Source of the DNA: Minutocellus sp. GHC0000111
Taxonomy: Eukaryota
Reading direction: 5' to 3'
Assembly: GCA_977018835.1 (NCBI GenBank)
Contig: OZ361258.1
Location: 1,178,001 to 1,242,000 of the forward strand
Length of the DNA stretch: 64,000 nucleotides
Shown: one piece after another, positions 1 through 49,177 of the stretch
How positions within the stretch are numbered: position 1 is the first letter of the stretch
Layout: every line of letters starts with the position of its first letter
Notes under the pieces: generated by a model
Told to the model about the DNA's origin: nothing
Databases searched by the model: none
Seen by the model: only the letters and a program-made list of their open reading frames with translations
Position numbers and translations under genes: made by a program

Positions 1-2487
1 CGGGATGGACGACGGCGTTAGCAAAGTGTTGGAGGTTTGGTAAAGGCGAGAAAGCTGCCATGTTGGCCACGTGGTGGGTGCTACGACGAGATGATGGCCG
101 TGGGGGAGGGTTCCGATGTGGAATGTACCCTCGCTGACGGTATGATCGTCGTCGAGGTGGTTTGGCGGTCGATGGTTTGGACTTGCTTGTCGATTTTGCT
201 GGAGCTGGTAATGTTGGAGTGGTATCGATCGTTGGAGACTTGCGTTTACGTTGCCGACGGGAGGTGGGGGCATTGGAACTTTGATTGGATGTTACGACGG
301 TTGCATCGTCGTCATGATTATCATCATCGTCGCCGTTGGGCTCGTCTACTGCAGCCAAAGGATTGTAGTAGTTGGAAGAAACTGACGAGCGAGGTGGCGC
401 GTTGGATCGACGTGATCGACGGCTTTTAGTGGTGGCTGCATCACATGTGGAGGATTTTGCCACCCTCGGAGGTTGCTGGGGCTGAGGCAACGGAGCGTTG
501 GGGTTGGAGACAAGGTGACGGCCTACTTCAGTCTCGTTCATCTCTTCTACGTCGTCGTCCTCGTATTTGATTTTGTAGTACTTATGCTTCTTGTCAAATG
601 CAACGACTCTACCCTTGTAATTGCGATCTCCAAACACTTTGGCGACGATGGTACCGAGGCGGAATCGTTGGGAGTCGTCATCGTTCTCCAGCACCCTCGG
701 AGCTGCGGTTGTCTGCATCGTCTCATCAGAGGCGGAGGTGGCAGATTCTGCTGGGGTCGCGCTGTTGAAAATCTCGGAGAGCTTTTCTAAAGCTTGACGA
801 TGCTCGTCTCGAAGGGGAGCAAGGGGTGCCGCTGGATGTGGATTCTGTAGAGCGTGCAGGAGTTCATGAGCTGCGACTATTGCTGCATCGGCCGACGACG
901 TTTTGGGTACCGGAATCATTTGGGGAGCCAGACGAGTGTGTTACCAGTGCGTTCCGCCCGAGTTTCCTCAATCCAAACCTTGTAACACCGGTAGTGTTCC
1001 ATGGCTGGACCGACATAGTACCCATCAACGCCATGCGGGGACCAAGAGCCGCGTGCCGAGGGCATCTCGTGAAAGATGACCTTGCATCCGAGGGGGCCGA
1101 GAGGCGTGCGATTGAAATCAAAGCCGCCATTGAGTTGCTCGTACGCTGATAGTCGAGGGTTGACTCGGGATGCTCTCAGGAAATTGAGGGTCATTACCGC
1201 CTGCTCCAGCAATTTATCCCACAAGATGAGGGGAAAGTCGGGATCGGTACCACAGAGAATCGCAATGAAATGATTCTTAAAGGTTCGAATGGCTCGTTCG
1301 GCCGCATTTCGGCGGTGGGAGTGCGTTGGGGTCAATTGAAAATCTACATCCTTTTCTTCCATGAACTCCTTCAGCTCTCGACTCACTTCATTATCCAATC
1401 GTTGCAATTTTGGGCGAAATCCTCGCTTGGAGAGGTATTCGAAAATAGTTTGGTGCGCTCGGCGCATTTCCGTTCCCGATCGGCTTTTCATTGGTTCGGC
1501 CAAGATGCTGTTGGAGTCATAGTCATAGACGACCATTATGTACTGGTGGCCAGAAATAGACGATGCCAAGAAACGGCCGGGCTGATCTGAGAAGATCTGG
1601 CCCGTTATGTCATGACAATCAGCAAAGACATAGTTGGTGCGCTGTTGGTGTTGTGCCGGGTGGAGATCCTGCTCGGTTTCGTCCACCCCAGGGAGAGATT
1701 TTGGCGTAGCCATCGACCGTTTGGGCTTGGTCGACCTGATGTTCTTGCGCTGCTGGTCTAAGTGACCTTTAATCATCGGTATCGACTGTGGCATGTGCTT
1801 ACGTACAAGCTTTGATGTGAGGCCTGGCCAAGATCTATAAAATCCCGCATCGATTGCTTTGCACCAGGTAGATAGCTGAGGACTGCCAGCGCACCAATGT
1901 AAAAAGGCTACACGTTCCGGAACCGTCTCCTGGGCAATTGCGGCGTTGGCAGCATGTTGGATGACGTTGGGGCCGGGGAGCGGCGACATGATGGGCGAGC
2001 AATTAAGATCTACCATCCACAATTTCGTTGAGGGGTCTCGTTTACCTTGCAAAATGACGGTATTGTCCTTGGCGATGACTACCGAATCCTTATCGAAAGT
2101 GGCAATGCATCCATCGTCACACAGCTGCCCAATCGATAGGAGCGATGATGCCATATTATTGAAAATATAGGCCTTGCTAGCCGATGGGGAAACCCCAGGG
2201 AGGCGAAGCGTGGCCTCGTGGGTGTTCGTCATTGTGCTGTTATCCGGAAGGGTGACGCTGATAGGAATTGCTGTCTGTTGGACGTTGAAAATTGGGCCAT
2301 CGTACGATAGGTGTTGGGGCTTCTGGACAAAATGTCCCGTCGTTCCAGCATCTGCTGCGAGGACGATTGGCTCTTGAGTTGGAGGTTTGCTTTTTGACGT
2401 AAGAAAAGCTAACGAAGGCGGGGAGGAGGTGGATTCAGATGTGCTATCCTCTATTTTACACTGATTAATATCCACCGTCCCTCCCGC
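1..2487 (-). CDS. pol: Copia pol (protease, integrase, Tudor-like domain, linker to RT), with a 1-nt frameshift near 916
   Basis: ORF 916..2475 carries the PR and IN motifs. After AAA-TG-ATT at ~916 another frame reads IPVPKTSSADAAIVAAHELLHALQNP... and stays open to the window edge. Confidence 0.88.
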
Positions 2488-3758
2488 TCAGTTACGACGC
2501 GAGCTACCACCGCAAGGATTGCACTTGGTGGCGTTATCAACGTGGTTGGGCCCTTTGCAAGTGCATTCAAAGCTGGGGTGGTTGGACGAATAGCCGCACG
2601 TGTGACAATAATGGCCTCTGGGGAGGATCGACTGCAGTTCCCGCTTCTCCTGGCGGTTGAGGTTACGACCTTGGCCTGGGAAGTGGCCGGCGCCGTTCTG
2701 CTGGCCACCGCCGCGGTAGCCTCCACTGCCACCAGCATGGTTGCGTCCCTCACGCAGAACGCGGTTCTCGGCCTTGAGTGAAGCTATTTCTTGGCGAAGT
2801 TTGGCAATGGCATCATCCTTCTCGTTGCTCTTTTTGGCGAGGTTCGCCATCATGGCTTGGTTGGTCTTGAGGGCTTCGGTGGTGTCAGCCAAAAGGAGAT
2901 CGGCTCGAGAAAGAAATGGATCGTCCGAGGCCGATGAGGCCAAATTCGCGCCATGACATCCTGCCGCTTCGGTGGTGGTGTTGGCCATCTTCTTATCACA
3001 CCAATCGCGGAAGTCCGACTGCATGTTGGCCCACGTGCGTTCGGCCTCCGGTCTGTCGTCCCAATCCTCGCATGCCTTCTTTGCCAATGAGAACCTGCGC
3101 ACGGAGCGGCAGAACTTGGAGACCTTTTGCTTGTTGGTGAAGGGTTCGCCGGCCGTTTCAAACACCTTGAAGACTTTGTTGAACATGGCGATGTGGGTGT
3201 CGATGGGTCCCCCGTCGTGCTGCTTCTCTAATTCCTCCTTCTCAGTCTCGTTGAATTTCAAGTAGCGATCGGCAATGCTGTCGATGATTTGGCGGATGGT
3301 GACTGGCTGGAAACCGAGCATGTCATCTTCGAGATGATTGATGTAGACGGCGTCGATCGAGTCGAGGAGGAGATTCTTGAGCGCCGTGTTGACTTGCTCG
3401 CACAAGTTGCAGTGGCCCTTTTCGATGCAATGTCCCCGGATTGCACGATCGCGTTGGTCTAGATTGGCCACGGCGGGAGTGGTGGGGCTGGGGCCAGGAT
3501 TTGCCGGAGGCACATGTGGTCGGCCGTTACTTTTGGTGGTGTGTTCGGCATCGCTGACGACGAGGCCCAAATGGCCGAGGTTGTGGTCATTGCACCCTGC
3601 TGGAATGCTGGCCGCCGCTTGTTGAAGTTCCTTGAGAGCGCTTTGGCAACACGCTCGCGTTGGGGAGGTTGTCCTGGGTCATTCACACGTGTGATTAACT
3701 TGGTGGGGAGAATCGGCGCTGCGCCGAGAGGTTGGCCAAAAACTGCGTCGGGATTCAT
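2488..3758 (-). pseudogene. gag: Copia gag, degenerate (frameshift near 3640, apparent Y->C/H substitutions)
   Basis: ATG at 3758 (MNPDAVFG..) shifts frame into LKELQQAAASIPAG..LGHLGLVV. The C-terminus has a zinc-knuckle-like YCHTCG...HPSFEC....H..NAT..NPCGGS. Confidence 0.8.
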
Positions 3759-4042
3759 GCTGGTGTTTCAGTCAGCGAAGACAGGCAGCACGGCGGTGTT
3801 GCTGCGAGAGACGTGTGATCGACAGAAGGTTCGATCCAGAGAAGTGTGATCGATTGGATGGGTCGATCTGGTCAGGACTTTCGGGGAAGGGATTGGATCG
3901 TCGCTCCAACATTGTCGAAAGAAACGGTCGTTTTGGCCGATTGAAGATGTGTCGGTTTTTCTTGCGTGACGAGTGAGTTGAGAACCCAAGACAAACCGGT
4001 GTGAGGTGCGAACCGAAATGGGGCGAGCACGGGTGGAAAAGA

Positions 4043-4253
4043 TGTATCACGTAGGTCTGCTAAGAGGTCCTAAAGCTAAGCTAGATAGATATAGCTAGTA
4101 GAGGTTAATAGGACCTACGTAGATGAAAAATGGGCCATCGGAGATGTCGTTGGCCCATGGATCAACGGTCAGGAGAGGGCACTGAGTCAGTGGTCTGATC
4201 ACCGTACGTACCGTACGTATGTATACGTACGTACGTATCCCATGGTATCAACA
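4043..4253 (-). repeat. Putative 5' LTR (inner boundary uncertain)
   Basis: Minus strand begins TGTTGA at 4253. The segment is TA-rich (TACGTA/TAGCTA runs), and composition changes sharply near 4045. The partner LTR is not in the window. Confidence 0.55.
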
Positions 4254-4492: not shown

Positions 4493-4566
4493 CTGTTCAT
4501 AGCCCTGGCCGACCACTAGGCCACTATCCGGATGATGGCCTAGTGGTCGGCCAGGGCTATGAACAG
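4493..4566. repeat. Perfect 31-bp inverted repeat (hairpin/palindrome) with 12-nt loop
   Basis: CTGTTCATAGCCCTGGCCGACCACTAGGCCA (4493-4523) is the exact reverse complement of 4536-4566. Confidence 0.97.
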
Positions 4567-26091: not shown

Positions 26092-26938
26092 CTATTGCTC
26101 CTCAAGCGAAGCCTTTAGAAATTCTACCATCTTATCCACATATGCGGCCTTGGTTGGAAATAAGTGTCCCTTGTCATGGACAACGAGTTCTCCGTTGCCT
26201 CCTCTCCGGCACAATGCATCTGTTGACTCCACTGAAATGATTGCATCTGTTTCACCGGCCAGATGCAGTTTTGGAATCGCCAATCCTGAACCTGTATCTT
26301 GTAAGTCTCCCGACTCTGCTACCCATTCCGATGCAGATTCAAATACCTCCTCGATATGAGGTGCCCCAGCGGTGAGCACTGCTCGAACCGGTACTGCCCC
26401 TGACGTGGCCAATGCCGTTACAACAGTACCACCCTGCGAAAAAAACCATCAATCCATCGAATGGCCCATGTTTCAAGGCATATTCGGAGACATATGTCAT
26501 TGCCTCTGCAAGCTTGAGATATCGATACTGCTCTGGGTTGTCCTCCAGAGGCTCTCTCAGGAACCAAGCCCTCGCCGTGTTGAACATTGGCGTTTCTGCA
26601 TCGGACCCTGCAGATGCACTTGGTGCAGTTGTTGACTGCGAAACCTCCTCCAAATCGATGGGCCCGTCCAAAAAAGTCAAGTCGAACGCCCTCTCCAGCT
26701 TCCGTCGTGCACCACCAATCTTTTTGGGGAAAGACTCGGCCGTCTGCGCCTTGCCGTGAAGACAGAGTATTCTGGGCTTTGTCATTGCTGAGAATGCCTC
26801 GACCGTGCTGCTCTTGAACACGAGCAAACAGACCAGCAATGGGAACAGAGTAGTCAAAGGAGCGGCAATTGTGTTCTTTGGTACCAAGCGCGATTTTAAG
26901 CCAGCGCCGAAGGTAGGAGGGGTGGAACGGCTACTCAT
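26092..26938 (-). CDS. FSH1/OVCA2-family serine hydrolase, frameshifted at a homopolymer near 26440
   Basis: PRILCLHG..Q, FLDGP, GPFDGLM(GFSQGG) nucleophile region, LHLAGETDAII and HDKGHLFP. Confidence 0.88.
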
Positions 26939-27079
26939 GGAAGACTGGAAGACTCATGCGAACGACAGTAGCGGTTGTGCGCGCAATGCGAGGCAGCAAA
27001 AGCCGGGCGACGGTCAGAACATTTATTTTCGCCGCGTCATTCGACATTCGACAACGCGCCACAACCACTCGCCTGACTA

Positions 27080-27127
27080 CGAGGTCCGGGACAGCAATTT
27101 CGGGGACCCGGTTTTTTGGGTCTTTGG
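27080..27127 (+). repeat. Left terminal inverted repeat
   Basis: TA|CGAGGTCCGGGACAGCAATTTCGGGGACCCGGTTTTTTGGGTCTTTGG. Confidence 0.9.
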
Positions 27128-27278
27128 ACTTTCCGACACGGCGGTTTGCGCGCACCTTGAAAAACACGCGGCAAAGCAAGCAAATCAAAACACATCCGTC
27201 AACAACGACCTCCAAGCAATTACCACAAATAGACTGGGCAACTTCTGCCGACTGGCGCTTCAAGAAGCTTCCATACTC

Positions 27279-28415
27279 ATGGATACTCCAAAGGGACACA
27301 TCTTCAGTCCACCGCGTCCACCGAAACGCGCCGAGGCGACTGCATTCAGCCCCTCGCGCCATGAGAAGGAAACTTCCAACGAAACGCCGGAACATCCGCG
27401 GTATCGAGAGAACAAGGACAACCATGACGAGGAGGACAACCAAGGGGTCCCACCGGCATCGTCAGACCTCACATCTCCTCGTGTGTTGAAATATCGACGC
27501 GAGTACAACGAAGAGGATGGCTTCGCCGCCGAACAAGCCCAAGCAAGGAAGTACTTGCATCATGACATATTGCGTGCCGACTTTCGCGGTACCGCTACCG
27601 TTTCATCTCATTCTGATGAAGATGATTCATTCTCAGAGACGAGCATAGCAACCGCCGACGCAAAGCCAAGCGGCGAGAGGAGAAAGCCCGTGAGCTCATT
27701 CGACCTTCCCTCCGCCACGCCCATGGTAACAAGTCCAATGTCAGTTCATACTCAGTATGCTCTTACCCCAAGCCGCTCATGCCCGTCGTTCAGCAACCTT
27801 CAATTGTCATCCCCTACCATCTTGGAGCCCTTGCCTCCAACCGAACCAACCGAACGACAGATTGAACGAGAGGTTGAGGAACATCGGAGGCTTGCGTGCT
27901 TTTTGACGTACGGAGAAGCACCACTACCACAAGATATAAAGAACTACAAGTCACCCACATGTAGTCTGAGGCCCGAACCAAGAAGAAAAGAGAAAGGGGT
28001 CTACCTCCCCTTCAAACAAGTTCCTGGTTGGGGTAGCGAGGTCGCGGTCACCACAGTGCTAGGCATGATCGAAGTCGATCGCCAAGTAAGAGAGGGTCGT
28101 GGTGCCTACCCGAAAGGGTGGAGAAGCAGAGAACTCGGATTGTATGATAACAAGACAATAGAATTCTCTATTGCATTATCTACTGACAAGATTGCATTAG
28201 ATGCATATAAGTTGGGATATGAGGATGGGAGTAAACAACCAACTGCTCACCCTGCCCTCACTGACAATAAACTTGCCGATGCATATGGTGTGAAGCGCGG
28301 AAAGATTCGTCAGTCCCTCCACGCTGTGTGGCTTTCTAATGATCATAAGAAGGCCAAGGAGGCAAAAAAGAATACCGGTAGAAATAGAAGAACAAAGAAG
28401 CCCACCGTGATATAA
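27279..28415 (+). CDS. Transposon-borne cargo ORF of unknown function, possible C-terminal HTH
   Basis: Uninterrupted 378-aa ORF from MDTPKGHIF inside the TIRs. TDNKLADAYGVKRGKIRQSL is HTH-like and is followed by a basic tail. Confidence 0.7.
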   Translation: MDTPKGHIFSPPRPPKRAEATAFSPSRHEKETSNETPEHPRYRENKDNHDEEDNQGVPPASSDLTSPRVLKYRREYNEEDGFAAEQAQARKYLHHDILRADFRGTATVSSHSDEDDSFSETSIATADAKPSGERRKPVSSFDLPSATPMVTSPMSVHTQYALTPSRSCPSFSNLQLSSPTILEPLPPTEPTERQIEREVEEHRRLACFLTYGEAPLPQDIKNYKSPTCSLRPEPRRKEKGVYLPFKQVPGWGSEVAVTTVLGMIEVDRQVREGRGAYPKGWRSRELGLYDNKTIEFSIALSTDKIALDAYKLGYEDGSKQPTAHPALTDNKLADAYGVKRGKIRQSLHAVWLSNDHKKAKEAKKNTGRNRRTKKPTVI

Positions 28416-28510
28416 ACAAACCAATGCTGCTGCATCTTACATGTAGATCTATAAATAATTTGTAGACGTGTAACATTTATTTAATACATGTGTAAAGACA
28501 TTAACACTAT

Positions 28511-31315
28511 CTATTTATTAGAAGGATGACGAGCTGAGGGCTCCATCCCCTTGGCCGTTTCGTTGAAGTCGATCCTAATTCCAGTGTGCAAGTTTTCGTC
28601 ACCCAACCTTCCAACAAACTCATTGCTACCACCGGCCTTAATCACCAGGCCCATTATCCTCCAGTACTGAATGAAGGCCGAAGCAATTTTGCAGTTAGGC
28701 ATGCTATCGTAAACGTCCTCGGCAGTGTCCCAGATCTGGTCGGTGGAAATGACGGAGGTGCCTACCATTTTTCGTGCCCATTCCGAGTGCCGCCGGCTCA
28801 TCGCGGGGAACACGCTCAAGTCAAGGACGTTGGCGTGAGGCATCTGCGGTGCCTGTGGCTGCCACGTCCAGCCTTGCTCAGCACAGAAGTTAGTAACAAA
28901 TTGCGTGAAGGTTCCGTCCTCGTGAGGCCCGGCCTGGTCGCCCTGGATAATAACATGGCAATCTTCGTATTGCTTGCCCGGACCGACAAGGTTGAGAATC
29001 GCTGGGAAAATAGTCTCCTTGAATACGAGGAGCAAAGAGCATTTCGGATCCTTTTTGGTGCCTTCGTTCGATCCAGTAACGCAACAATCAACAAGAAACG
29101 ACTCTCCTTTCCGGCGAAGAGGTTCCTTTCGTGTCCCATCGGGGTTGGTATTTGGGTACCGTGTTGAACCATCAGGCTGTGATGCTGCTTCGTACTGAGC
29201 TCGCTCCGCTATTTTAGGAGCTTGAGCTCGTACCAGTGGCAGTTTTACAACCTCGCACCCACTCTCAAGAGAACCGTCAAAGACAGCGGCAACAAATGCA
29301 ATGGCCATGACCTTGTTGATGTGGCTCCTGCGAAAGGCCGCGTAATCTCGCTTTTTCACGCCGATTTCCTCGCAAGCCTTCGCAAAAGCTCGGAGGACGA
29401 GACCCCAGAACCATTTCTCATCGTAATGCACGAGGAGAACTCGCTTCTTTCCATTCGGTAAATTGCCGTTCTCATCCCGAATGTTCCAGAAATTCCGCAC
29501 GAGCTGAGCAAAGGCCAGATGCTTAGCTTTTTGAGCCTCCGACAGGCGCGGTACCAGCCGCTCCTTGTAGAAAGTGAAGGTGTCGAATGACTTGAGCCAC
29601 CGCTCCCACAGCTGCTTGTCATCGTCGCTGATGGTGTCGTACTCGGCCAGGTACGTTTTGAGCAACTCATTGTCAGCCTCCTTCGATGCAGAATCATAGC
29701 AGTCTTCCTTTGCCTCTCTGCACTTATTGATTGCATACAGGCGCTTAGCAGCAAAGTACTGCTCAGCCGTCTTGTAATTGTCAATGGTAGACTTTGGCCG
29801 AACCGACGAATCCTTGGGAGCGGGGGTGACAAATGCAAGCTCGGCCTGATCTGCTGGCATGCCCCGGGCAATGGCATTCTTCCGAGACTCGTTCTGGATG
29901 TCTCGCAGCCCATTCTTACCCTTCCCCCACGCTCTGCAGAGCTCACGAATAGTGACCCTCCCATCCGACTGAAACTTCTGCGATGAACTGTTCCTACTTG
30001 AGTGCTGCGTCCCTCCGGTGCTCTTCAAATGCACTTCCAGAAGCAATCCCTGGGCAAAAAGCATGCTCTTGTCCTCGTCGTTCAATCCCTTCTTGCCTTT
30101 GGTTGCTCGATTCGCCTCCTTTCGAAGACATCCATCCTTCTTCCTGTGTCGCATGCCATGCAAAAGCTTTCCGACAAGAGTCTCCATCGGACTGCCATCG
30201 CTCTTTGCACGCTTGTTGGCACCGGCGCTGTCAACACCATCCATCCCCGCCTGAGCAGCTGCTGTCCGTTTGCGCCTGTCCTTGGCAATTGAATCGGTGT
30301 TGAGGCCGAGTGGGATCGGGGTGATGGCCTTGAGAGGCACATTCTCATGCATCATGCCACCAAAAGGCTTCTCATGCTGGACATCGCAAAGAGCACCTCC
30401 ACCGACACCTCGACTGACCACAACAAATCCCTTGCCCTCAGGCCGATTCATGTTGGGACTGAAGTCGGCAGACACAAGGACATGTTCCCCAGCACTGATG
30501 GCAGGTCGCATGTTGTCTTCCATTCTCATTGCTTTCTTGCGTTCGGGTGGTGCATCCGTCGGCATCCTGTGCGACCGAAGATGTTTTCACGCATTTGTGC
30601 CCTCTGCTCCAAATGACGCATCGCCTCCTTCATTTTGTTCCTTTTCTTCTCGGCATCGACCATGGCCTTTTCATCCTTCCGCTTTTCTCGTTTCAAGGCA
30701 TCCCTTAGCCCTTTCAAAGCCTCCTCTGCAGCTTTGTGTTGCGCTTCGGCCTCAACCAGCAGCACATCCAAATTCTCCTCGGTCGATCCACCAGAATTGG
30801 CGGTGCCGGCAGCAGAAACACCGACACTGGCAGGATTGCCAGATTCTTCACTGTTGCCGCTTCCATCCACCACCATGGACTCGGCGACGCCCCCAGCTTC
30901 GATGTTGTCATCACCAGGACGAGCAGCGATGCCTGCCAGCATTGTCCTCGACCGTCGGCTCAGGGCTGGCATCGGCGTCATTGGATGACGAATTGCGCCG
31001 AGCAATTTGAATTTGAGAAATCGGCACATCTTGTGCCGGATCAGGACCGGTCTGGCTCGGACAGCACAGCTCCTCCTCTCGGGCTTGCTCCACAATATCC
31101 TGCTGTTTCTGAAGTGAGAGGCCCGTCCATGCCCGGTTCGCTATGGTCTGGATCATCCCAGGAGACTTGCCACGAATCGTAGAGGCATCGATGGTGCCGC
31201 TCCGATGGACAAAACAATCAAAGCATGGGATGGAGCTGCCGGACCGACGGGAGCGGCGACATGCTGGCGCATCAGCTGCGGTGGCAGCAGTAGTAACAGC
31301 CATTTGCATTAACAT
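28511..31315 (-). pseudogene. Mariner-type transposase with a long, frameshifted and hypermutated N-terminal region
   Basis: Three overlapping ORFs (30911-31315, 30526-31095, 28511-30565). The last has an intact D..D38D triad. Confidence 0.85.
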
Positions 31316-31846
31316 GGTGTTGGATGCAGTATTTTGTGGCAGTAGAGCAACAGTTTGTATGTCGGGTGGGTTGGAAATGAGGAAGGTTTCATTGAGTGGC
31401 GGGCGCGCCGGGCGGGTGATGATTTTTTTGGCCCGCTCGATTTTGGCGCGGGGTCACCCGGACCGCATAAGATACGCCATTATGGGGACCATGGAGACCG
31501 ATATCGGAGCTCAAACCATATGGCTACTTGAATCAATGCATTTGGGAGGTGGTGGTGGGGTCGGGAGGTGGAGGAGGTGACCGGTTGTCATCGGAAAAAC
31601 TGGCAGAAGTCGGGAGGGGCGATGGATGGGGTGAGTCGGCCAGACAGACGCTGGCATGGGAAGATGAAATCGATATCTCCGAGTCGGTCCAAGGTCAAGG
31701 ACCAACCCGTTCTGGAGATACCACGCTTATCCCTTGCGTGAAGCGGATGCCGTCGGCACTGCCGTCACCGCCATCTTGAAGACAGGACGATAGCAAATAA
31801 ATGCTGCTTGCTGCGTGCGTTTGTGCTGATTTTTATGAGATTTTGC

Positions 31847-31893
31847 CCGAAGACCCGAAAACCGGGTCCCTGAAACTGCTGTCCGCGACCTCG
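31847..31893 (-). repeat. Right terminal inverted repeat
   Basis: Reverse complement reads CGAGGTCGCGGACAGCAGTTTCAGGGACCCGGTTTTCGGGTCTTCGG. Confidence 0.9.
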
Positions 31894-31916
31894 CACTTTC
31901 CCCAACATCGGTGACG

Positions 31917-33692
31917 ATGCCTCCTTATCGAGGCGGAGCCTCAACTTCTGTGGCGGTCACTGCATTTGTAGCGCTGGTATCCGCCTATGCGCTTGGTGCA
32001 GTCACAGGCTCTCTCCTGAGCCGGAGAGAGGACGACAAGACAAACACATCACGTGCTGACAATCGCAAAGAAAGTCGAAAGACGAAGAAGACAAAGAATG
32101 GAGGGCAGGGCACAAGTAACAACGGCAAGCGCGAGGGCGAAGCCGACTCGAGTGAGGAGCTGTCGTCAATCAATCTTATTCCTATCGGGAAAATATCATC
32201 TGTGTATAGATTATGCGTTGGAACACCAAGGCAGGGGCTACTGGCACCCAACTGTCGAGGCCGCATCGAGCTGTCACCGGCTCTTCTCTCGGCCGATAGC
32301 ATTCTAGGCCTTGACGGATACTCCCATGTATGGGTGGTATTTGTGTTTCATCTCAATACCAACTCCAAGATTGTGAAGCAAAGTGCCGAGGCCGCAACTG
32401 TAGCTAGTGGTTCTAGAGGTAAGAAGAAGGCCAAGGGTGGTTCGCGACAATTCCCAGCCAAAATTGCGCCTCCAGCTCTTGGCGGAAAGAAGGTTGGTTT
32501 GTTCTCCACCCGCACGCCGCATCGGCCAAATCCGATTGGTCTGACTCTATGCAAGATTGATTCTATCAGTAGAGGAAAGGACCCAAGCCAACCGTTCTAC
32601 ATCAATATTAGTGGGCTGGATCTCGTCGATGGGACCCCGGTGTTGGACATCAAACCATTTGTGCCACATTATGACACGGTCATTAATCCCGAGAAGATCG
32701 GTGATAGCAACTGCATGCCCGACGGAGTTACGGTACCGCATTGGGTGGGTAGTGGACTGGAGAAACGACGAGAAGTCACCTTTGCGCCGGGCGCTCTGGA
32801 TCAGTTGACAAGCATCGTTCGGGATGAAGGCACAGCGTTGGATTTTTATGGCATTCACTCAGGCAGAGATGCGAGCATAGATGACAGCCTCAATACTATT
32901 CAAGGAGCAATATCTCAGGTTTTGGCCATCGATGTTCGGTCCAAGTGGCAGACTGGTAAAGCACGGAAAGGCAAATTTCAAGCAGAGAAAGCCAAGAGAG
33001 TAAAATCCGTGATGGAGAAAGGAAATTCCATAGATAGTGGTGCTACGAATTCAGCTGCGGTTGATAACGACGACGACAATGTACTTTGCACACAACAGCT
33101 GGACAACTTGCTCATCAAATATTCAATTCGAGCACCCGAGGGAGTTGGGAAAGACGACGAAGTAACAAGAGGCAGCGGTGCAAACGATTTGGTTGAAGTT
33201 CGTGAAATCGAAGTACTCCGATCCGCTGGAGAGAATAATGCTACCGTTGGTACCAAGGCTAAAAGAATCGAAGAAAAAAGAGCAGAGAAGAAAACAGAGG
33301 ACGTCGGAATGAGCGATAGCAATGCCAAAGATTGGCTGAGTACCCCGCAAAAGATGGATAGTGGTCATGAGGGTGATGGTAGTGCCGGCGACAGTCGAGA
33401 TAACTCGGGCCCACCACAAGAATTCGGTGCTCTCAAGAACTATTGGGCCGAGAGGGGAGTGGCACACACACCGAAGGGATTAACCCCCACGGCGAGTGCG
33501 GAACAATTGAGTGCTGATAGGGCCAGTGGTCGAGCCCTCACATTCTCGAACCGGAGAACTCTGACACCTCCTCGCCTCAATGGCTTGTCTGCTGCAGCGA
33601 GGAGAAATTCCAGCGAAACGAAGGAAGAAGGAGGGGATACCACTGCTACAAGTGCAAGTGCAACTTCTCCGCAGCCTTACAAACAATCTTGA
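31917..33692 (+). CDS. trmO: tRNA (adenine37-N6)-methyltransferase TrmO/TsaA family
   Basis: GTPRQG, GLDGYSHVWVVFVFH, GLFSTRTPHRPNPIGLT and GLDLVDGTPVLDIKP, with an N-terminal TM anchor. Confidence 0.93.
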   Translation: MPPYRGGASTSVAVTAFVALVSAYALGAVTGSLLSRREDDKTNTSRADNRKESRKTKKTKNGGQGTSNNGKREGEADSSEELSSINLIPIGKISSVYRLCVGTPRQGLLAPNCRGRIELSPALLSADSILGLDGYSHVWVVFVFHLNTNSKIVKQSAEAATVASGSRGKKKAKGGSRQFPAKIAPPALGGKKVGLFSTRTPHRPNPIGLTLCKIDSISRGKDPSQPFYINISGLDLVDGTPVLDIKPFVPHYDTVINPEKIGDSNCMPDGVTVPHWVGSGLEKRREVTFAPGALDQLTSIVRDEGTALDFYGIHSGRDASIDDSLNTIQGAISQVLAIDVRSKWQTGKARKGKFQAEKAKRVKSVMEKGNSIDSGATNSAAVDNDDDNVLCTQQLDNLLIKYSIRAPEGVGKDDEVTRGSGANDLVEVREIEVLRSAGENNATVGTKAKRIEEKRAEKKTEDVGMSDSNAKDWLSTPQKMDSGHEGDGSAGDSRDNSGPPQEFGALKNYWAERGVAHTPKGLTPTASAEQLSADRASGRALTFSNRRTLTPPRLNGLSAAARRNSSETKEEGGDTTATSASATSPQPYKQS

Positions 33693-36175: not shown

Positions 36176-36880
36176 ATGGTGGAAGCAGGAAGAAGTCAGA
36201 GCCGTGGCAAGCACAGATCCATTGATCCTAGCTTTGACAATTCTCCATATTTGAGCAGGCCCATCCGTCCCATCCCTTCCACCTCTGGAGGCGGCGTAGG
36301 CAAGAATCGTCCGGCCCGATCCTCACCAAATGGCAAGGGCCAATCCCAACCAAACGATGACGTAGACGATGGCATTGCCCCACTTCGCGACATTACCGTA
36401 TCCAGCAAGTCGCCAACATCCCTGCTCCGATCCACGAGCAGATCGCGATCCGCAGGAAGACAGAGGGATGCCGACGTTGACAATGATGGATGCTCCCGTG
36501 CCGATTCCACCATATGCACAACCCGCACAGCAACCAAAGGCAACACTGCATCTCGCAAATCTCCCTATCTGATGGGGGCGGGTGCCACCGATACTTATGG
36601 CAGTGGCAGGTCGACAAGTGCCAAGAGAGTGGGACGGGGCGCAAAAGCAACATCCAAAACAGCAAAAAAGATGCCTCTTCCCAAGCTCTTATTGATGCCG
36701 GACGAAATCGACGAGATGCTTCTTGAGTTCAAACAGCGCCAACACGAAGAAGGGAAGTTGCTTCTCAGGAATACAGGCGAAGGTGCTGAGGACGATGCCG
36801 ACGAAGAGTACTCGAGCGATGAAGAGGACGATTCGTCGTCGTCAGTGTCCGATGCATCGTCATCCTCCTCCGAGGAATAG
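36176..36880 (+). CDS. Low-complexity hypothetical protein
   Basis: 234-aa S/R-rich ORF with an acidic tail. Confidence 0.6.
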   Translation: MVEAGRSQSRGKHRSIDPSFDNSPYLSRPIRPIPSTSGGGVGKNRPARSSPNGKGQSQPNDDVDDGIAPLRDITVSSKSPTSLLRSTSRSRSAGRQRDADVDNDGCSRADSTICTTRTATKGNTASRKSPYLMGAGATDTYGSGRSTSAKRVGRGAKATSKTAKKMPLPKLLLMPDEIDEMLLEFKQRQHEEGKLLLRNTGEGAEDDADEEYSSDEEDDSSSSVSDASSSSSEE

Positions 36881-36962
36881 GTCAGGCAATGCAAACTGTA
36901 AAGTCGGATCAGAACATGATAATCCATGTATCGTCACCCCCCACCGCGCCGTGTCCCTCCTC

Positions 36963-37619
36963 CTATTCCTCCTCAATGCCCAACGAACTACAGGTAACCT
37001 CCCTCAGCATCGCTCTCACTTCATCCCTCTTCTCGGACGCCTCTCGATGCTTCTCCTCCAACTGCCGATCGATGGCGCGGTTCTCCTCGATCAACGTTGC
37101 AATCCTCTCCATCTGCTCGGCCTTGCTCCGTCCCATCCCCGGCAAATGGTCCACCAATTCCTCCACCTCGCGACTCTTGTCCAATATCTCCCCCGCCAAC
37201 CGCTGGGCGGTCCCGACGTCGCTCTCAAAGTCCATCCGCGCCAGCACCTTGAGGTACTCCTCCTTGCTCTGCGGGGGTTTCTCCCCGGCCTTTTGGGCCA
37301 CCTCCAGGGCATGCGGTTCCTGGTTGTGGTAGGCGATGAGAAAGTCGTCAAAGTCGGCCTCGTCTTGGTTGTTGCTGTTGCCCTTGGCAGTGTTGGTGTT
37401 GGCAGCCTCGCCGACCAGTGCCTCGGGTGCCGTGGCGTCGCGGATGCCGCGCAGAGCCTCGAAGAGCGACAGGGCCAGACCGTCGATGGCATCCTGCACT
37501 TGGGTTACGGGGTCAATCTTGGCAGGTGGTGGAGGTGGCGCTTGGGGTGCAGTTGGTGTGGAGGCGGCGGCGGTACCATCGGCGGCGGCAGACGAGGCGG
37601 GCGGCGGTTCGGTCGTCAT
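36963..37619 (-). CDS. MED21: Mediator of RNA polymerase II transcription subunit 21
   Basis: DPVTQVQDAIDGLA...LAGEILDKSREVEELVDHLPGMGRSKAEQMERIATLIEEN matches the Med21/Srb7 pattern. Confidence 0.9.
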   Translation of the reverse strand: MTTEPPPASSAAADGTAAASTPTAPQAPPPPPAKIDPVTQVQDAIDGLALSLFEALRGIRDATAPEALVGEAANTNTAKGNSNNQDEADFDDFLIAYHNQEPHALEVAQKAGEKPPQSKEEYLKVLARMDFESDVGTAQRLAGEILDKSREVEELVDHLPGMGRSKAEQMERIATLIEENRAIDRQLEEKHREASEKRDEVRAMLREVTCSSLGIEEE

Positions 37620-38005
37620 GGTCACGCGATACTTTATGCGATCGACTCTCTAAACTAGAGGGTGAGTAAAGCCAATGCAGATCGACTAATTTCGTAAGAA
37701 CGCTAGCTACTTGTGGTGTATCGAGTGGGGAGGTTGGAGCGTTGGAGCAGGTCAGGCCGGTTGGTCCACCGCCTCGTGCTTCTTTGGAATGTGAGGCCAA
37801 CAGCGCAGCAGCGGCACGTGGGCCGTATGACTCAATCGACTGACTAAAAAGCTAGAGGCAAAGATTGAATCAAGACGACAGAGTGCAGGAGGCTAGTCTA
37901 CCAAAGCGCAGCAGCGGCATTCTTCTCTTGCTCTGATAACCTTCTTTCTGATAAGAACTCTAGCTTGGCTACCACACACATGTACAAGATAGACCCTAAA
38001 TCCTC

Positions 38006-39682
38006 TCATGCATTTTTACTGACATCCCCCATAACAATCACAACCTCATGCCGTCCCTTGAGATTGCTGGATATAAACGCATTCGCTGGTAAATTGTTTT
38101 GCTTCTTTCTGTCCAGCTGAAAGGCTTCTATGTGCGACCCTGACCCATGAATGCCAATGTCTAGAATCATTTTCTGATACCGAAAGTTGGTCAGAGTCAC
38201 TGGTGATTTCGATGGAAACAAGGATTCTGGCTTCACGGGCGCAAATCGCAACCCATCGACCTCAAACGTCACGCCAAACAAACCTTGGTATATCATGGCG
38301 AGATATCCAGTATCAGACCACAACTGCCGACTCCTCTCAGCGGGAAATGTGCCATCGAGCTCATAAAATTCGGCAAACGTTCCACCTTTTACTGCCAAAT
38401 TCTTCAGAGCTTCGAGAGCATACTCAAATACATCCATCCGCCCATGTCTCGCAGCGGCGATGGCGAAATATCCTTGGACAAAAGGCCAAAGGCGGCCATT
38501 ATGATAGTACTGGGCGATGTGTATTGACTCCTTCAATTCAAATCGAGGCCACACACAGGGGAGACCATAGCTCTGCTGCTTCACATTGTCAAAGAGGCTT
38601 TGAATGCGCAATGGATCCTTTTCGACGCCGTCCAAAATGACGAGTGCCGAGCCCAGTCCCTCCACATTTTCCCACAGTGCTCCGTCCTCGCCCAAGACGT
38701 AACTGTAGTAACCCCCCTTTTCCAGCCAAAGGTTGGTGCGAATGGCATTCCTGAGTCGAGCAGCCTTGTCCTCGTATTGCTGGATCTCGCGTTCGTCTTT
38801 ACCAAGCTCTCTCCCCATTTTCGCAGCTATGGCGTACCCGCTTGCATACAGTGCGTTGGTTGAGAGGGCCTTGGTTTGATTGATCAAGTCTCCTCGATGG
38901 TGATACCGAGCAGGGTAACCCGAATTCGATTCCATGAATGACGAACATCCCCGAAAGAGACCAAGCTCGACGTCAAAGGCGTCGCGTTCTCCGCGGACGA
39001 GGGAATTTCTTGTCACGTCGTAAGCCCAACTAAGAAAAGTCCGATTGCCACCACCGACCAGGTACAACGACCAGGCTCCCCGAGCCCCCACGATGGCATC
39101 CGAAAGGACAGGCCAACCGCCAAAGTGGGCACAACTGTCCTGCAGCCAAACCAAGGGCGGCGCATCGTCATCGGCATTGTTGGCATTGCTGTCGATCTCG
39201 ACGCTGGCCTCGAGCGACGAACGGACGACGTCCGGATACAGCAAGCTGGCGGCCGATTCGGCGGCATAACTCGTATCTCTGGTCCACAGCTGGGCCCATC
39301 CCTCCCCGGCTATAAATCGGTCGCCCTCGCCGACGTTGGCGTCGATCTCCTCTAAGGCGAGGCGGTAGGCCCAATCGAAGTCGTCTTGGCCCGTTGTCAA
39401 AATCGGCGGGCCACCACCGGAAGGGCTACTACTGCTGCGGCTGCTAATATCTTGCGTAGAAGGCGTGCCACCACCGGCACCCCAGTAGATGGCACCGGAA
39501 ACAAACAAAGCTGCTCCAATGAAACCCATGTGCAGGCGCATTGGCGGTGAAATACTCGTGCATTCACTACAGGCAGCACTACACGTACTGACGCTGTTGC
39601 GCCGGTGCAGAATTGGCGACTGCTGCTGCCGCGATCCCGGCGATCCCCTCGGGCTCGAGTAGGGCGAACGGACACCGCTCAT
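38006..39682 (-). CDS. Membrane-anchored six-hairpin (alpha/alpha)6 glycoside hydrolase, glycogen-debranching-C/GH63-like
   Basis: AGEGWAQLWTRDTSYA, KALSTNALY, IRTNLW...YY, YHNGRLWPFVQGY, FAEFY and RQLWS..GY. TM near the N-terminus and no intron. Confidence 0.82.
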   Translation of the reverse strand: MSGVRSPYSSPRGSPGSRQQQSPILHRRNSVSTCSAACSECTSISPPMRLHMGFIGAALFVSGAIYWGAGGGTPSTQDISSRSSSSPSGGGPPILTTGQDDFDWAYRLALEEIDANVGEGDRFIAGEGWAQLWTRDTSYAAESAASLLYPDVVRSSLEASVEIDSNANNADDDAPPLVWLQDSCAHFGGWPVLSDAIVGARGAWSLYLVGGGNRTFLSWAYDVTRNSLVRGERDAFDVELGLFRGCSSFMESNSGYPARYHHRGDLINQTKALSTNALYASGYAIAAKMGRELGKDEREIQQYEDKAARLRNAIRTNLWLEKGGYYSYVLGEDGALWENVEGLGSALVILDGVEKDPLRIQSLFDNVKQQSYGLPCVWPRFELKESIHIAQYYHNGRLWPFVQGYFAIAAARHGRMDVFEYALEALKNLAVKGGTFAEFYELDGTFPAERSRQLWSDTGYLAMIYQGLFGVTFEVDGLRFAPVKPESLFPSKSPVTLTNFRYQKMILDIGIHGSGSHIEAFQLDRKKQNNLPANAFISSNLKGRHEVVIVMGDVSKNA

Positions 39683-39994
39683 GTTAGTTATTAATAGGTC
39701 ATAGACAACCAATCGAGTTCCTTTCGTCCTCAAGTTCAAAAATAAATGCCGGCTAGCTAGGACTCCTTATTACATGTTTAGTTGAGCAAATGTAACCATA
39801 AACTTGTATTGAGGAGTGGATTAGTCTGTCTGTCATACCGACGCCAGTCGCCCACCGCAGGATCGCTTTGCCTTCCTCCACAATGAGATATCTCTGCTTC
39901 GTCTCGGCGTCTCGCTCGGCATAGCCTGGCCAACCAGCAGTGATACAAGATCCACATGCGTCTGGCAATAAGCGCAGAATTCACTTATAATAAA

Positions 39995-42889
39995 ATGGGC
40001 GAGAAGTCAAATTGGAGAAATATAGGAAATTGCATTCAAAGCATGATGACACGCATGAGGAGTAGGGGCGAAGTGAGGAGCAGTGTTGCTCTCCTATCAT
40101 CTTTGCTGTTGCTCCTCATCATCTTGGATCCAGCTGCCGATGCCTTCTCCGTTGCATCCTTTACTGGTGCCTACACGAACATACCTCTAAGTGCGCGTTC
40201 CTTCGCCAGGACACATGGGATTCCTACTTTATCGAATAGACACCATGTGCCGATGCCATCATCGAAGCTCTTCTCGTCCCTCACCGACGAGACCAATGCG
40301 AGCGACGACGAGGCCGGTTCGTTCGATCCCGATGCCGCCGATCTGACCGAGTCGGAAATGGCCGCGGCGGCCAACGATCTGGTCCGTCTTTCCGGCGGTG
40401 GTTCCGGCAGCGTCGAACTTCCCGACGAGATATCGCAGTCCTTCCTGCAGTACGCCCTGAGCATCATCCTGGGCCGGGCCCTGCCCGATGCCCGTGACGG
40501 ACTCAAGCCGGTCCATCGGCGCATCCTGTACGCCATGTCCGGCCTGGGCCTTAGCCCCTCCAGCTCCCATCGCAAGTGTGCCCGTGTCGTTGGCGAAGTG
40601 CTCGGTAAGTACCACCCCCACGGCGACATGGCTGTGTATGATGCATTGGTCCGCCTGGCGCAAGATTTCAGCACCGGCACTCCCCTCATCGATGGACATG
40701 GGAACTTTGGCTCGATCGATAACGATCCCGCCGCCGCCATGCGATACACTGAGTGTAAGCTGACCAAGGTTAGCAGCGAGACCCTGCTGGAGGATCTGCA
40801 TTCCGACACCGTCGACTTCATCCCCAACTTTGACGGCAACGAGATGGAGCCCACCGTCCTACCAGCGAAGTTGCCCGTACTTCTTCTGAATGGGTGTGCT
40901 GGGATTGCCGTGGGGATGGCCACCAACTGTCCGCCGCACAATCTGGGAGAGCTGATGGATGCCTGCATCGCCCTGACGAAAAGTCAAGAGGAGGAGGCAC
41001 CGGAGGTTACCGACGAGGCATTGTTCCGCTTGGTCCCAGGTCCTGACTTTCCAACTAGCGCGCTCATTATTGGTACCGATGGGGCCAAGAAGCTGTACAA
41101 GACGGGCAACGGCGGCGTCGTTATGCGAGCCGTGACGCAAGTAGAGCAAATCGTCACTGGAAGGGGCAAGGCACGCTCGGCTATCGTGGTGACCGAGCTT
41201 CCCTACCAGGTGAACAAATCCGCCCTTCTAGAGAAGATTGCCGACCTCGTCAACGACAAGAAGCTCGAGGGGGTGGCCGATCTGCGCGACGAGTCCGATC
41301 GAGACGGCATTCGGGTCGTCATCGAGCTGAAGCGAGATGCCGTCCCCTCCATCGTGCAGAACAATCTCTTCAAAAAGACGGCGTTGCAGACTACCTTCAG
41401 TGGCAACTTCTTGGCCTTGATGGGCGGTGGGACCGTACCGCAGAGGTTTACTCTGAGGGGCGCATTGAATACCTTTCTGGATTTTCGCTTCGAAACGATC
41501 CGAAGGAAGAGCGCATTCCAGCTGAAAAAGGTCGAGGCTAGGGCACATATCGTTGAAGGTCTTCTCCGTGCGTTGGAGTCGGCCGACGACGTCATCGAGC
41601 TGGTCCGATCGGCACCAGATCAGGCCCAGGCTAGGGAGGCTCTCATGGCCGAAGATGGGAAGGGTGGACTCGGTCTGACCCGAGACCAAGCCGATGCCGT
41701 CTTACGGCTTCAATTGGGACAATTAACCCGCCTCAATAAGGGCAAGCTTCTGGAGGAACAGCAGACCCTTGCCACGTCACAGGCTGAGTTGGAGAAGCTT
41801 CTCACCGTCGATGGTGCCGTCCGAGACCTAATGATCGAAGAGTTTAATGAGAGCAAGAAGAAGTATGGCATCCCACGAAGGACGAGGATCCAACCCGAAG
41901 AGGGTGAGCTCGAGGATGTTGATTTCATCAAGAATTCTCGTTCGGTTATTGTGGTTACGAGGGGTGGCTACATTAAGCGAATGCCCCTCAAGACCTTCGA
42001 GAGCCAGCGGCGTGGTACTCGGGGCAAGAAGGGAACGTCCAGTGCTTCCGAGGACAATGAGGTGATGCATTGCTTCACATGCAATGATCATGACACATTA
42101 CTAATGACGACTCAGCGAGGCGTTGCCTTTGGATTGCGAGCATTCCAGGTACCCACAGGAACCAGGACAGCCAAAGGTGTCCCAATCCCCTCTGTTCTTC
42201 CCGTCAAGTCAGATGATGTTATTACCTCTGTGCTTACTGTATCGGAATTCTCAGACGACGAGTACGTGGTCCTAGCAACAGAAAATGGATACATCAAGAA
42301 GACTCCGCTTAAAGCTTTCGAGAAGCTAACTTCTCGCGGTCTCATCATTGCAACACTTGGCGAAGGTGACCGGTTGGCCGGCTGCCAGAAATGCACGGAC
42401 GACGATGACATTCTCATCGGTTCTAAGCTTGGAATGGCAACGAGAATATCCGCCGAGAAGCTCCGGCCCACGGGAAGGACGAGCCGGGGTGTAATCTCCA
42501 TGAAGCTGAACGAAGGCGATAGGGTGGCCGACATGAACGTCTTGCCAGCGGAATCGTCCGGATACGCCCTAGTGGTGACTTCGAGCGGATATGGAAAGCG
42601 AGTTGACACGAACGAGTTCCGAACCCAGGCAAGAGGGGGGAAGGGAGTGATCGCCATCAAATTCAAACAGTCAAACTCGGACGATGAGGTCAGTTGTCTT
42701 CGCATAGTGGATGAGGAAGATGAAGTCCTTGTGATTACGGCAAAAGGAGTCATGGTTCGACAAAAAGTAAAGAATATTCCCAGTCAAGGCAGAGCAGCAA
42801 CCGGTGTCCTGGTTCAGAAGCTTGACAATGAAGATGCAATCGCCAGTGTTAGCCTCGTACCGGTGCCATCGTATGAGGATAAGGAATAG
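39995..42889 (+). CDS. gyrA: DNA gyrase subunit A, nucleus-encoded with plastid-type bipartite presequence
   Basis: [34 protein letters not shown] (catalytic Tyr), GyrA-box QRRGTRG and C-terminal pinwheel repeats. The signal peptide ends ADA|FSV. Confidence 0.97.
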
Positions 42890-43169
42890 CTGTGTACCGC
42901 GTCGTATTTATTATTTATTATACAACAAAGATCACAAGTCAAATCAATTAGAAGGCGCAATTGTAACTACATATTGAAATGGCAATCATCAGAGAGAGAT
43001 CTCTCTGTCGTACTCCTTACACTTTAGAGTTGAGTAAAATTAATCCAAAAATTTCCTTGAAGGAGTGCGGATCTGCGGACACTGCTCTGGCGATGGCGGC
43101 ACATTGCAACATCAAGCTGTATTGCACTACTCGGCTGCCACTGCCCCCTACTCGAAAGAACAACACCAC

Positions 43170-44840
43170 ATGATCCATATCCGAGAATACGATGGGGACC
43201 CACTGAGGAATGCTCAGCAGCGACAAGGGGAGCATCCTTCAGAAGGCGACGGCGACGCGGCCGCCGCATCTGGATTGTCGGCATTTGCAGCCGATGCAAG
43301 CCAACCGCAATGCATTGCCCATTACGTCGTCCAATCACCAAGTAGGAGTCCTACTCTCCAAAGACTTTCGTCGTCGCCATCACTACCCACTAGAACGTGG
43401 CAACAGTCGCTGCATCATGGGTTTGTTATCCGACCGCAGCGGATATTTGCCGACCTGTTTCTGCCACTTGGATATCCTGAGAGTGTCGGCGAAGGCTACC
43501 TTGCCTACCAAGTCTACGACAGTCTTCAGGGTATATGCTCCTACCTGCGTGGAGTGGTAGCCACCTCGGCCGTCATGATGGCCGCCGGCGTTGGCGATGC
43601 TGAAGCCACTGCCATGTCAGCAGCCGTCAATTGGGCGCTGAGGGATGGTACCGGAATGATCGGTGGATTGCTCTTCTCGTATGTTGCATCGGCTCAATTT
43701 GACAGCTACGTCAAGGAATTTAGGCTCTTTGCTGATGTGATCAATGACGTCGGGCTTACCCTTGACATGCTGGCATCGTATGCTGGCCGAGGACGTGTCC
43801 TTTACGTGACGAGCTTGGCGACAATATGCAAAACCATGTGTGGGATGGCCGCGGGTGCGACCAAGGGCAGCATTACGCATCACTTTGCCATACATGGCAA
43901 TATGGCCGATTTGAATTCCAAGGAATCCACTCAAGAGACCCTCGTGTCGCTATTGGGGATGATATTTGGAATTGGACTTGCGCGATATTTACATGGGCTG
44001 GAAAAGCATGGGTGTGGGGATGGAAACACTGCTGATGTCAATGAAGAGGAATGTATTGCCGACGGCACGGCGAAATTTATATCATGGGCCATTTTCATCT
44101 TTCTTACCATTGTTCATGTGTGGGCAAATTATCTAGGAGTCAAGATATTGCGACTTAGGACGCTGAATCGGGAGCGTGCAGAGGTGGCTCTCAAGAATAT
44201 CATAGACGAGTGCACAAAACAATGCGAGGACAATCTTCTCGATTTCAAAAAGATGGAACTATTGGATGCCGAAACGTTACTGAAATCCATCTTATCGCCG
44301 CATGATGTTTCAGAGTCGCTTTTGTCATCTGTTGGTAAGCTCGTTTTTCCCGGAAAGGTTCGTTTGAATTCACATGTTCATGAGGCGTTCCGCGGCATGA
44401 GAGAGGCGGAAAATTCAGATTCGATATCTGATGTGTTGAAAGAATTTGATGGCGAAAGATATTTCCTAACAGATAATAATAAGGATGTGGTGTCAGTCGT
44501 GTTGTGTGCGGGATGCACCGAAGAGGATGAGCTGAAGGCTTTTGTGCATGCAATGGTGTTATCGGCGTTGTGTAGGAGTGAGCGAATGAAGGACAGAGAG
44601 GAAACGATGAAACAGAGCGAGAACTTCTGCAAAGGCAGACAGCGGTACTTATTCGCGGTGATAAGCCACATGTGCATCTGCCAATTATTCCAACAGCAGG
44701 GGCCTGGTGCAGTCAATTCTACTAAGCCCAAACTTACGTTGGATTGGCTCAAGGAGCGAGGTTGGGAAACCAATAGGCTCTATCTCGGGTTTGGCCATTG
44801 CCGAGCACAAATTAGCGACGAGCGGAAGAAAGAAGAATGA
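43170..44840 (+). CDS. RUS1 (root UVB sensitive, DUF647) family protein
   Basis: FLPLGYPESV..YLAYQVYDSLQ, WALRDGTGMIG, RLFADVIND, HFA..GNMADLNSKESTQET and LRTLNRER. Confidence 0.93.
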   Translation: MIHIREYDGDPLRNAQQRQGEHPSEGDGDAAAASGLSAFAADASQPQCIAHYVVQSPSRSPTLQRLSSSPSLPTRTWQQSLHHGFVIRPQRIFADLFLPLGYPESVGEGYLAYQVYDSLQGICSYLRGVVATSAVMMAAGVGDAEATAMSAAVNWALRDGTGMIGGLLFSYVASAQFDSYVKEFRLFADVINDVGLTLDMLASYAGRGRVLYVTSLATICKTMCGMAAGATKGSITHHFAIHGNMADLNSKESTQETLVSLLGMIFGIGLARYLHGLEKHGCGDGNTADVNEEECIADGTAKFISWAIFIFLTIVHVWANYLGVKILRLRTLNRERAEVALKNIIDECTKQCEDNLLDFKKMELLDAETLLKSILSPHDVSESLLSSVGKLVFPGKVRLNSHVHEAFRGMREAENSDSISDVLKEFDGERYFLTDNNKDVVSVVLCAGCTEEDELKAFVHAMVLSALCRSERMKDREETMKQSENFCKGRQRYLFAVISHMCICQLFQQQGPGAVNSTKPKLTLDWLKERGWETNRLYLGFGHCRAQISDERKKEE

Positions 44841-44927
44841 GTAAAAAATAGCCGCTGTCGCATTAGTGCACATAATACCGTACTGAATGCAAAGTGTTCG
44901 TGTACAGTCTTAAATGGAGCTAGCTAA

Positions 44928-49072: not shown

Positions 49073-49177
49073 ATAATGAATACTAGCTACAGCCAGCCAG
49101 AGCAATATGCATGAATACATAATACGTAATTCCTCTATATTGTAGACATTCTATAAAGATTTTCTGCCATCCCAAAT

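Follow-up and report, generated by a model that had tools for sequence, protein, structure and literature searches.

Organization of the locus

The window, the 64,000 bp stretch of Minutocellus sp. GHC0000111 DNA analysed here and in whose coordinates all positions are given, contains a 4.8 kb DNA transposon of the Tc1/mariner superfamily (27080..31893), delimited by 36-nt inverted repeats. In run X5 the depth is 12,330 on the element and 109.5 on host DNA, corresponding to about 110 copies. The left terminal repeat (27080..27115, forward strand) and the right one (31858..31893, reverse strand, 36 nt, upstream of the transposase gene) form pair I3 and are 89% complementary; the former is common to the related loci L001 and L003, and the latter is also found in relatives. 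The left target-site duplication reads TA (27078..27079), but the right flank reads CA in place of the expected TA (31894..31895), TA being present at 4/4 ends seen in the relatives' elements. Contigs of runs X1 and X5 over 31870-32079 have 0 differences from the window and confirm the CA, which at this single site is likely a TA-to-CA hit after insertion.

The element lies between divergent host genes encoding an FSH1 serine hydrolase (26342-26953) and a TrmO tRNA methyltransferase (31917-33692), the probable start of TrmO being some 25 bp away. It is present in RNA runs X2 and X8, but the contigs include the flanks and so need not be transcripts. Many other copies carry internal deletions, joining 29474 to 30626 (about one-third of the family depth in X5), 29467 to 30264 and 29192 to 30511, and a short derivative joins 27340 to 31858.

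The transposase gene (28511..31309) is on the reverse strand, with its start position inferred from protein P0068. In the window copy it is broken by two frameshifts, one near 30584 and one at about 30930-30934, and by an in-frame gap of 46 codons near 29605. The upstream open reading frame fragments picked out in the sequence-only reading are frameshifted pieces of this one transposase of about 950 residues. In the long copy P0064 the catalytic triad is D697, D858 and D897, with 38 residues between the second and third aspartates, and Pfam HTH_Tnp_Tc3_2 (PF01498) scores above its cut-off; a PDB sequence search with P0064 gave no match, and the named transposase homologues are from Nitzschia. 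The terminal inverted repeats, TA flank, DDD triad and Tc3-type HTH are marks of the Tc1/mariner superfamily, held in common with the DD39D/GT and DD38D/IT families as described in the available text of PMC9219625. Set against that description, the Minutocellus element differs in its spacing of 38 residues (39 in DD39D/GT), its long N-terminal extension and its second open reading frame.

This second frame (27267..28415, forward strand, 382 aa) occupies the left arm, convergent with the transposase gene, and has no Pfam match. Copies within the family are 97-99% identical, with one 44% homologue (P0366), and the frame was not found in loci L001-L032, whose elements have the same terminal repeats.

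A copia-like retrotransposon lies at the left of the same window. Its gag and upstream region (2488..4045, reverse strand) is TA-poor (o/e 0.21) and is followed by the integrase region of pol from the same element (916..2487, reverse strand), which is homologous to diatom integrase proteins. The named homologues are from Arcocellulus for gag, belonging to a cluster with 53% identity to it, and from Phaeodactylum for pol. On the reverse strand the frame runs on past the integrase into low complexity sequence (1-918), and reverse transcriptase is not seen within the window. A 37-nt near-perfect hairpin without a loop (4493-4566) lies just past the element. Elsewhere we note a nuclear DNA gyrase subunit A gene (39944-42889; PF00521, PF03989), presumably serving an organelle, and a multi-copy element of 759 bp with 23-nt inverted ends (50881-51639), which a second haplotype in runs X1 and X5 lacks, 50880 being joined there to 51640. 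This small element has a TA o/e of 0.38 and a TG o/e of 1.42, and 0/4 of its differences are TA-linked. No viral insert was recognised within the 64 kb window.

A TpA-depleted tract in the transposase gene

The 5' half of the transposase gene coincides with a tract (29997..31095) that contains 1 TA in 1,099 bp (o/e 0.02) at a GC content of 0.553. The single TA counted by hand in the sequence-only reading is indeed the only one; it lies at 30706..30707, preceded by a pyrimidine and followed by a purine, which is the context hit least, and the next TAs outward are at 29995 and 31096. TG and CA are in excess (o/e 1.29 and 1.57, with 64 kb window values of 1.13 and 1.12, as compared with 0.58 for TA), CG is at 0.81 vs 0.99 in the window, and AA and AT stand at 1.19 and 1.18. 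That reading had also proposed a comparison with GC-matched host genes, and no equally long TA-free tract was found in GC-matched host DNA: in the 303 GC-matched windows outside both transposons the TA count has a minimum of 14 and a mean of 30.9, from which the Poisson probability of the tract having one TA or fewer is about 1e-12. The lowest count in any of 1,047 overlapping 1,099-bp windows outside both transposons is 9, and host open reading frames in this one 64 kb window have TA o/e values of 0.36-0.68.

Stop triplets occur over the tract at 33 per kb vs 55 in host DNA. Long antisense and off-frame open reading frames span the tract and its neighbours (30255-31010, forward strand). Both are expected once TAA and TAG have been erased.

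Copy-to-copy changes in transposon proteins

Because codon structure fixes the neighbouring base, amino acid exchanges among transposon copies report the context of mutation. The transposase set comprised the window protein and 60 database proteins, 15 listed from each of four clusters with 200 members, and 60/61 of these proteins contributed; a same-species origin of the 60 was taken from their 94-97% identity. We discarded any alignment below 85% identity, together with regions of locally poor alignment and the three outermost residues at either end; the outgroup served to assign Tyr to column 409, and the ambiguous column 448 was excluded. The cells of 21 tyrosine columns, which count copies and not events, include duplicates and come from copies that share ancestry and may include haplotype duplicates, hold 362 Y, 67 H, 51 C, 1 F and 0 R (481 cells).

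Changes of Y>C, which report A>G after T, are seen at 16/21 Tyr columns vs 10/301 columns in which the A follows C, A or G (p = 2e-16), and changes of Y>H, which report T>C before A, at 13/21 Tyr columns vs 4/126 control columns (p = 3e-10). All but one of the 119 changes at these columns (118/119) are Y>C or Y>H, both C and H are present at 11/21 columns, and single copies also carry both. Reverse changes are zero (C>Y 0/464 cells, H>Y 0/511 cells), and R>H/Q/C/W is seen in 2/1,377 cells. The original suggestion that TA becomes TG and CA on both strands at the DNA level is therefore borne out copy by copy. Its residue examples fared unevenly: GEHVLV, DVQHEK and IPCFDCFVH do fall at Tyr columns of copies or relatives, but the His of GGMMHENVP is kept in relatives, hence not a Tyr>His change, and the variable letter there is a Lys>Glu. 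CA is a possible weak secondary target of change to CG, with H>R seen at 3/19 columns but Q>R at 0/41.

The copia-like element shows the same changes, at a heavier load than in the mariner element. In gag, 34 copies with 14 Tyr columns hold 168 Y, 105 C, 67 H and 1 F, so that 172/341 cells (50%) are C or H, and 172/173 changes are Y>C or Y>H. Here Y>C is found at 14/14 columns and Y>H at 13/14, with 13/14 carrying both states, and at two further columns Tyr is present in all 11 outgroups and only C and H in the copies. In pol, to which 32/35 copies contributed, 48/181 Tyr cells (27%) are C or H (29 C, 19 H), with Y>C at 12/12 columns and Y>H at 6/12; the load is heavier in gag than in pol (p = 1e-7). 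Per adenine, TA sites change 32-fold (transposase), 105-fold (gag) and 74-fold (pol) more than other A:T sites, which themselves change at a low background of 0.2-0.4%. The specificity for the TpA context, the two directions of change at one site and within one copy, and the occurrence in two transposon classes are thus directly observed. In sister families of other species, for which short-read assemblies collapse copies, the corresponding counts are Y 72:C 1, Y 205:S 1, Y 103:C 1, Y 191 and Y 74, and this near-absence of Y>C/H may be due either to collapsed assembly or to a true absence.

Nucleotide variation and a divergent relative

Contigs of four runs were compared with 26800-32200, and 40 of 65 differences were listed; 36 of these lie inside the mariner element, and with four adjacent pairs collapsed they form 32 sites. 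The host set comprised 36 rows from 36500-56300, which remained of 40 listed out of 227 differences once 4 within a small repeat had been removed, together with 4 flank rows; runs X15 and X18 have almost no host coverage. Among the differences listed, 18/32 mariner sites are TA vs TG or CA as compared with 5/40 in host DNA (p = 1e-4), and among listed transitions alone TA-linked changes are 18/26 in the element vs 5/23 in host DNA (p = 0.001). A tabulation by context had been proposed at the outset, and in proteins and DNA alike the substitutions are enriched for TA to TG or CA. Within this window host DNA is spared and the listed host SNPs have no TA bias.

At 30238-9 in X1 the share of T is 0.90 and that of G is 0.39, so that TA, TG and CA alleles coexist. 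The TG or CA letters at 29688 and 29752 occur almost exclusively in the window copy, so that hits go on after copies diverge. At 27640, 29331, 30888 and 31849 the window copy privately reads CG where other copies read TG or CA.

A relative of the element, represented by the near-identical loci L001 and L002, which were counted once, is 67% identical and has a normal TA o/e in each half (0.52-0.56). Of the relative's TA sites, 27 align within the tract; the window reads TG at 9 of them, CA at 9, CG at 3, other dinucleotides at 6 and TA at none (0/27), whereas it keeps 19/49 of the relative's TA in the 3' part (p = 6e-5). A TA-poor sequence shared by all copies and homologues, named beforehand as an outcome contrary to hypermutation, is accordingly not what is found, either in the other copies or in the relative.

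Sequence preference and position within the element

The mutation process prefers purine-TA-pyrimidine sites. With neighbouring bases taken from the window copy, 109/284 transposase Tyr cells are changed in columns preceded by a purine and 8/180 in those preceded by a pyrimidine, and the same is true of the 3' zone alone (38/165 vs 4/148). The 18 variable mariner TA sites comprise 9 purine-TA-pyrimidine, 9 mixed and 0 pyrimidine-TA-purine sites. Among the TA that remain, purine-TA-pyrimidine accounts for 0/15 in the gag region vs 619/1,771 in host DNA.

The load also varies along the transposase gene. In purine-preceded columns it falls from 44/63 (residues 213-415) through 27/56 (539-578) to 38/165 (773-949), that is 70% > 48% > 23%, and the front is more hit than the back in 10/11 long copies (p = 0.012). 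Column 54, however, is hit in 1/7 copies, and TA is normal at 31280-31579, both of which speak against a simple promoter gradient; the peak (29800-31250) lies within the 5' half of the gene. A gradient drawn from all codons, which speaks against it too, is much flatter, with 0.45, 0.43, 0.28 and 0.28 derived at variable TA columns, in part because only varying columns are counted. The mariner left arm and the second open reading frame are nearly spared, which a scan of the whole repeat would not predict; the second frame has a TA o/e of 0.69, and 3/50 of its Tyr cells are changed (6%) in a set sampled differently from that of the transposase. Beside the copia-like element, a TA-rich and apparently unmutated run (4045-4300) adjoins the TA-poor gag region at a sharp boundary.

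Proposed mechanism and alternatives

It is very probable that a targeted process acts on TpA in these transposons. The fuller reading, in which TA is changed to TG or CA on both strands of transposon copies 30-100 times as readily as other A:T sites, likely by a host adenine-deaminating enzyme, we regard as probable, and for the adenine deaminase taken by itself, which is a candidate only, our confidence is modest though on the favourable side. The sequence-only reading had described an A to G change; a transition process at TA is what is observed, and as TA is palindromic the same data would result from attack on the A or on the T. Both 'deamination' and 'defence' are what we infer from the pattern. 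A plausible scenario is that transcription, small RNA or chromatin would bring a host enzyme resembling TadA or ADAT2-3 to transposons, where it would deaminate TpA adenines to inosine, which would be fixed as G at replication. Hits would accumulate after insertion and would disable the elements through missense changes (Tyr>Cys/His, as well as changes involving Ile, Val and Thr) and the loss of the flanking TA. Mariner transposases need that flanking TA. Enumeration of TA to TG or CA changes gives 0 stop codons created and 48 removed; since the process cannot create stops, any defence would act through missense damage and flanking-TA loss. The mariner family is abundant despite the mutation process, which leaves defence a putative role.

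The alternative that survives best, although we consider it unlikely, is that thymine is attacked: a TET/JBP-type enzyme would mark transposons for silencing by oxidising the T of TpA to 5hmU or 5-formylU, and the modified base would mispair with G to give T>C. The TA palindrome would make its spectrum identical to that of adenine deamination, and in dinoflagellates 5hmU formed by TET/JBP is tied to transposon silencing, with T preferentially replaced in TA and TC, according to the available part of PMC11572971. TC is spared in Minutocellus, however, S>P being seen at 2/67, 1/23 and 0/45 columns of transposase, gag and pol, and the tract has a TC o/e of 1.20.

An error-prone polymerase or repair process acting on transcribed or broken transposon DNA, resembling pol-eta in the A:T phase of antibody hypermutation, is somewhat less likely again. 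The increase of load towards the 5' end resembles transcription-linked hypermutation and both strands are hit, but the pol-eta motif is WA and its products include transversions; here AA-context columns are changed at 6/144 vs 29/42 for TA (p = 3e-18), AA is not depleted in the tract, and only 1/119 Tyr-column changes is a transversion. On these data the WA spectrum itself was rejected.

Two further explanations appear very improbable. One, largely refuted, is that selection on the element removed its TA and so kept it from self-insertion, or that the tract is the inherited composition of a master copy; Tc1/mariner elements do insert at TA, and Tyr is gone from all copies at transposase column 409 and gag columns 55 and 109. 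The presence of both Cys and His at 11/21 transposase and 13/14 gag columns argues against it, as do the window-private letters at 29688 and 29752 and the heavier load in the copia-like element; the Tyr-less columns are split between Cys and His and so have changed more than once. The other is an artefact of sequencing or assembly, or RNA editing copied back into DNA, and it is true that run contigs derived from repeats are chimeric paths and that reverse transcription would let a retrotransposon fix RNA edits. Against this, the same TG and CA letters are found in DNA-type runs as well as in Illumina RNA runs from 2016 and 2018, an X2 contig of 355 bp within 29860-30214 matches the window without a difference, the mariner element is cut-and-paste with no reverse-transcription step, and single copies hold both C and H hits.

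Decay of methylated CpG, in which ancestral CG gave TG and CA and TA was never present, is scarcely credible and as a main cause is already refuted by the tyrosine polarity: the tract is slightly low in CG and at 30493-4 only CA vs TG alleles are seen, but relatives have Tyr and not Arg, Y>R is 0/481, 0/341 and 0/181 cells (transposase, gag and pol), R>H/Q/C/W is about 0.1% of cells, and the relative's CG reads TG or CA in the window at 24/78 sites in the tract and 27/95 outside it, which is no tract excess.

Fungal RIP was rejected as the cause, given the zero C>Y and H>Y counts and the loss, not gain, of TA. That the change is the opposite of RIP, as had been suggested initially, is upheld, TA being removed with no creation of TpA by C:G>T:A. 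Context-free GC-biased conversion was set aside on the low rate of change at A:T sites other than TA. A trigger of the ApT-type 6mA kind is unlikely, as AT is not depleted and GTAC sites, which lack ApT, are hit (columns 539 and 785).

Relationship to known systems

RIP is homology-triggered, premeiotic and dependent on RID. In ascomycete fungi RIP (see also PMC7296669) likewise consists of context-specific transitions on both strands that are concentrated in repeats. It differs in that RIP is C>T and makes TpA and stop codons, whereas the diatom process removes TpA and makes no stop codon.

The TpA signature is not undescribed, having first been reported in a 2026 preprint on Bigelowiella natans (bioRxiv 10.64898/2026.01.13.699255). 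According to its available text, two integrated viral regions acquired 231 de novo mutations, 230 of which are A:T>G:C, all of them at TpA; the de novo rate is raised about 1000-fold and the process is active in a subset of lines. Mettrop et al. (10.64898/2026.01.13.699255) also find DDE-endonuclease and reverse-transcriptase domains enriched in TpA-poor genes and propose an ADAT2-like enzyme. The same source notes that TadA/ADAT and ADAR convert A to I, which is read as G, and that ADAR favours a U 5' of the edited A; these enzymes act mainly on RNA.

The Minutocellus process resembles that of B. natans, as set out in the available text, in its TpA to TpG and TpA to CpA transitions, in acting on both strands and in being confined to selfish or foreign DNA; features of the Bigelowiella type seen here are changes that are almost all A:T>G:C transitions, the restriction to TpA, the two-strand products and, in one window, the sparing of host DNA. 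The two differ in that B. natans is a rhizarian with viral inserts, the large one single-copy, in which mutation was measured de novo, whereas Minutocellus is a stramenopile with multi-copy transposons observed through copy-to-copy variation. The purine-TA-pyrimidine preference, the gradient within the element and the hit on a target-site duplication are features of the diatom that the available text does not report for B. natans. The terms 'diatom' and 'stramenopil' are absent from the main text of that preprint (10.64898/2026.01.13.699255), and a search of literature largely outside the subscription journals found no diatom report of TpA hypermutation. Dinoflagellate 5hmU silencing by TET/JBP, as presented in the available part of PMC11572971, is likewise a base-level system aimed at transposons in an alga of the SAR group with a preference for TA; it is presented as a mark and not as a mutator, however, and also prefers TC, which the diatom process leaves unmutated.

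Implications

The B. natans preprint, in whose available text transposons are suggested as possible targets, is the only precedent found in the literature searched for targeted A:T>G:C mutation of nuclear DNA. The observations described here are new in extending such mutation to another supergroup, to both a DNA transposon and a retrotransposon as targets, to evidence at the level of individual copies, and to a 4-mer preference and an internal gradient. The preference and the gradient within the element constrain the enzyme and its targeting, and the genetic tractability of diatoms makes the hunt for the enzyme a testable undertaking. In such genomes transposon ages and gene models are distorted, with stop codons erased and long spurious open reading frames. 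A natural DNA adenine editor would matter both for genome defence and for base editing. Tentatively, and with rather more doubt than confidence, we raise the possibility that diatoms and chlorarachniophytes share a conserved 'reverse RIP', in which a double-stranded DNA adenine editor with a purine-TA-pyrimidine preference would be directed at the 5' portion of the transcription units of transposons and would wear elements down by missense changes and the loss of TA sites, making no stops. If true, such a genome defence would extend across the SAR group, and engineered adenine base editors would have a counterpart in nature.
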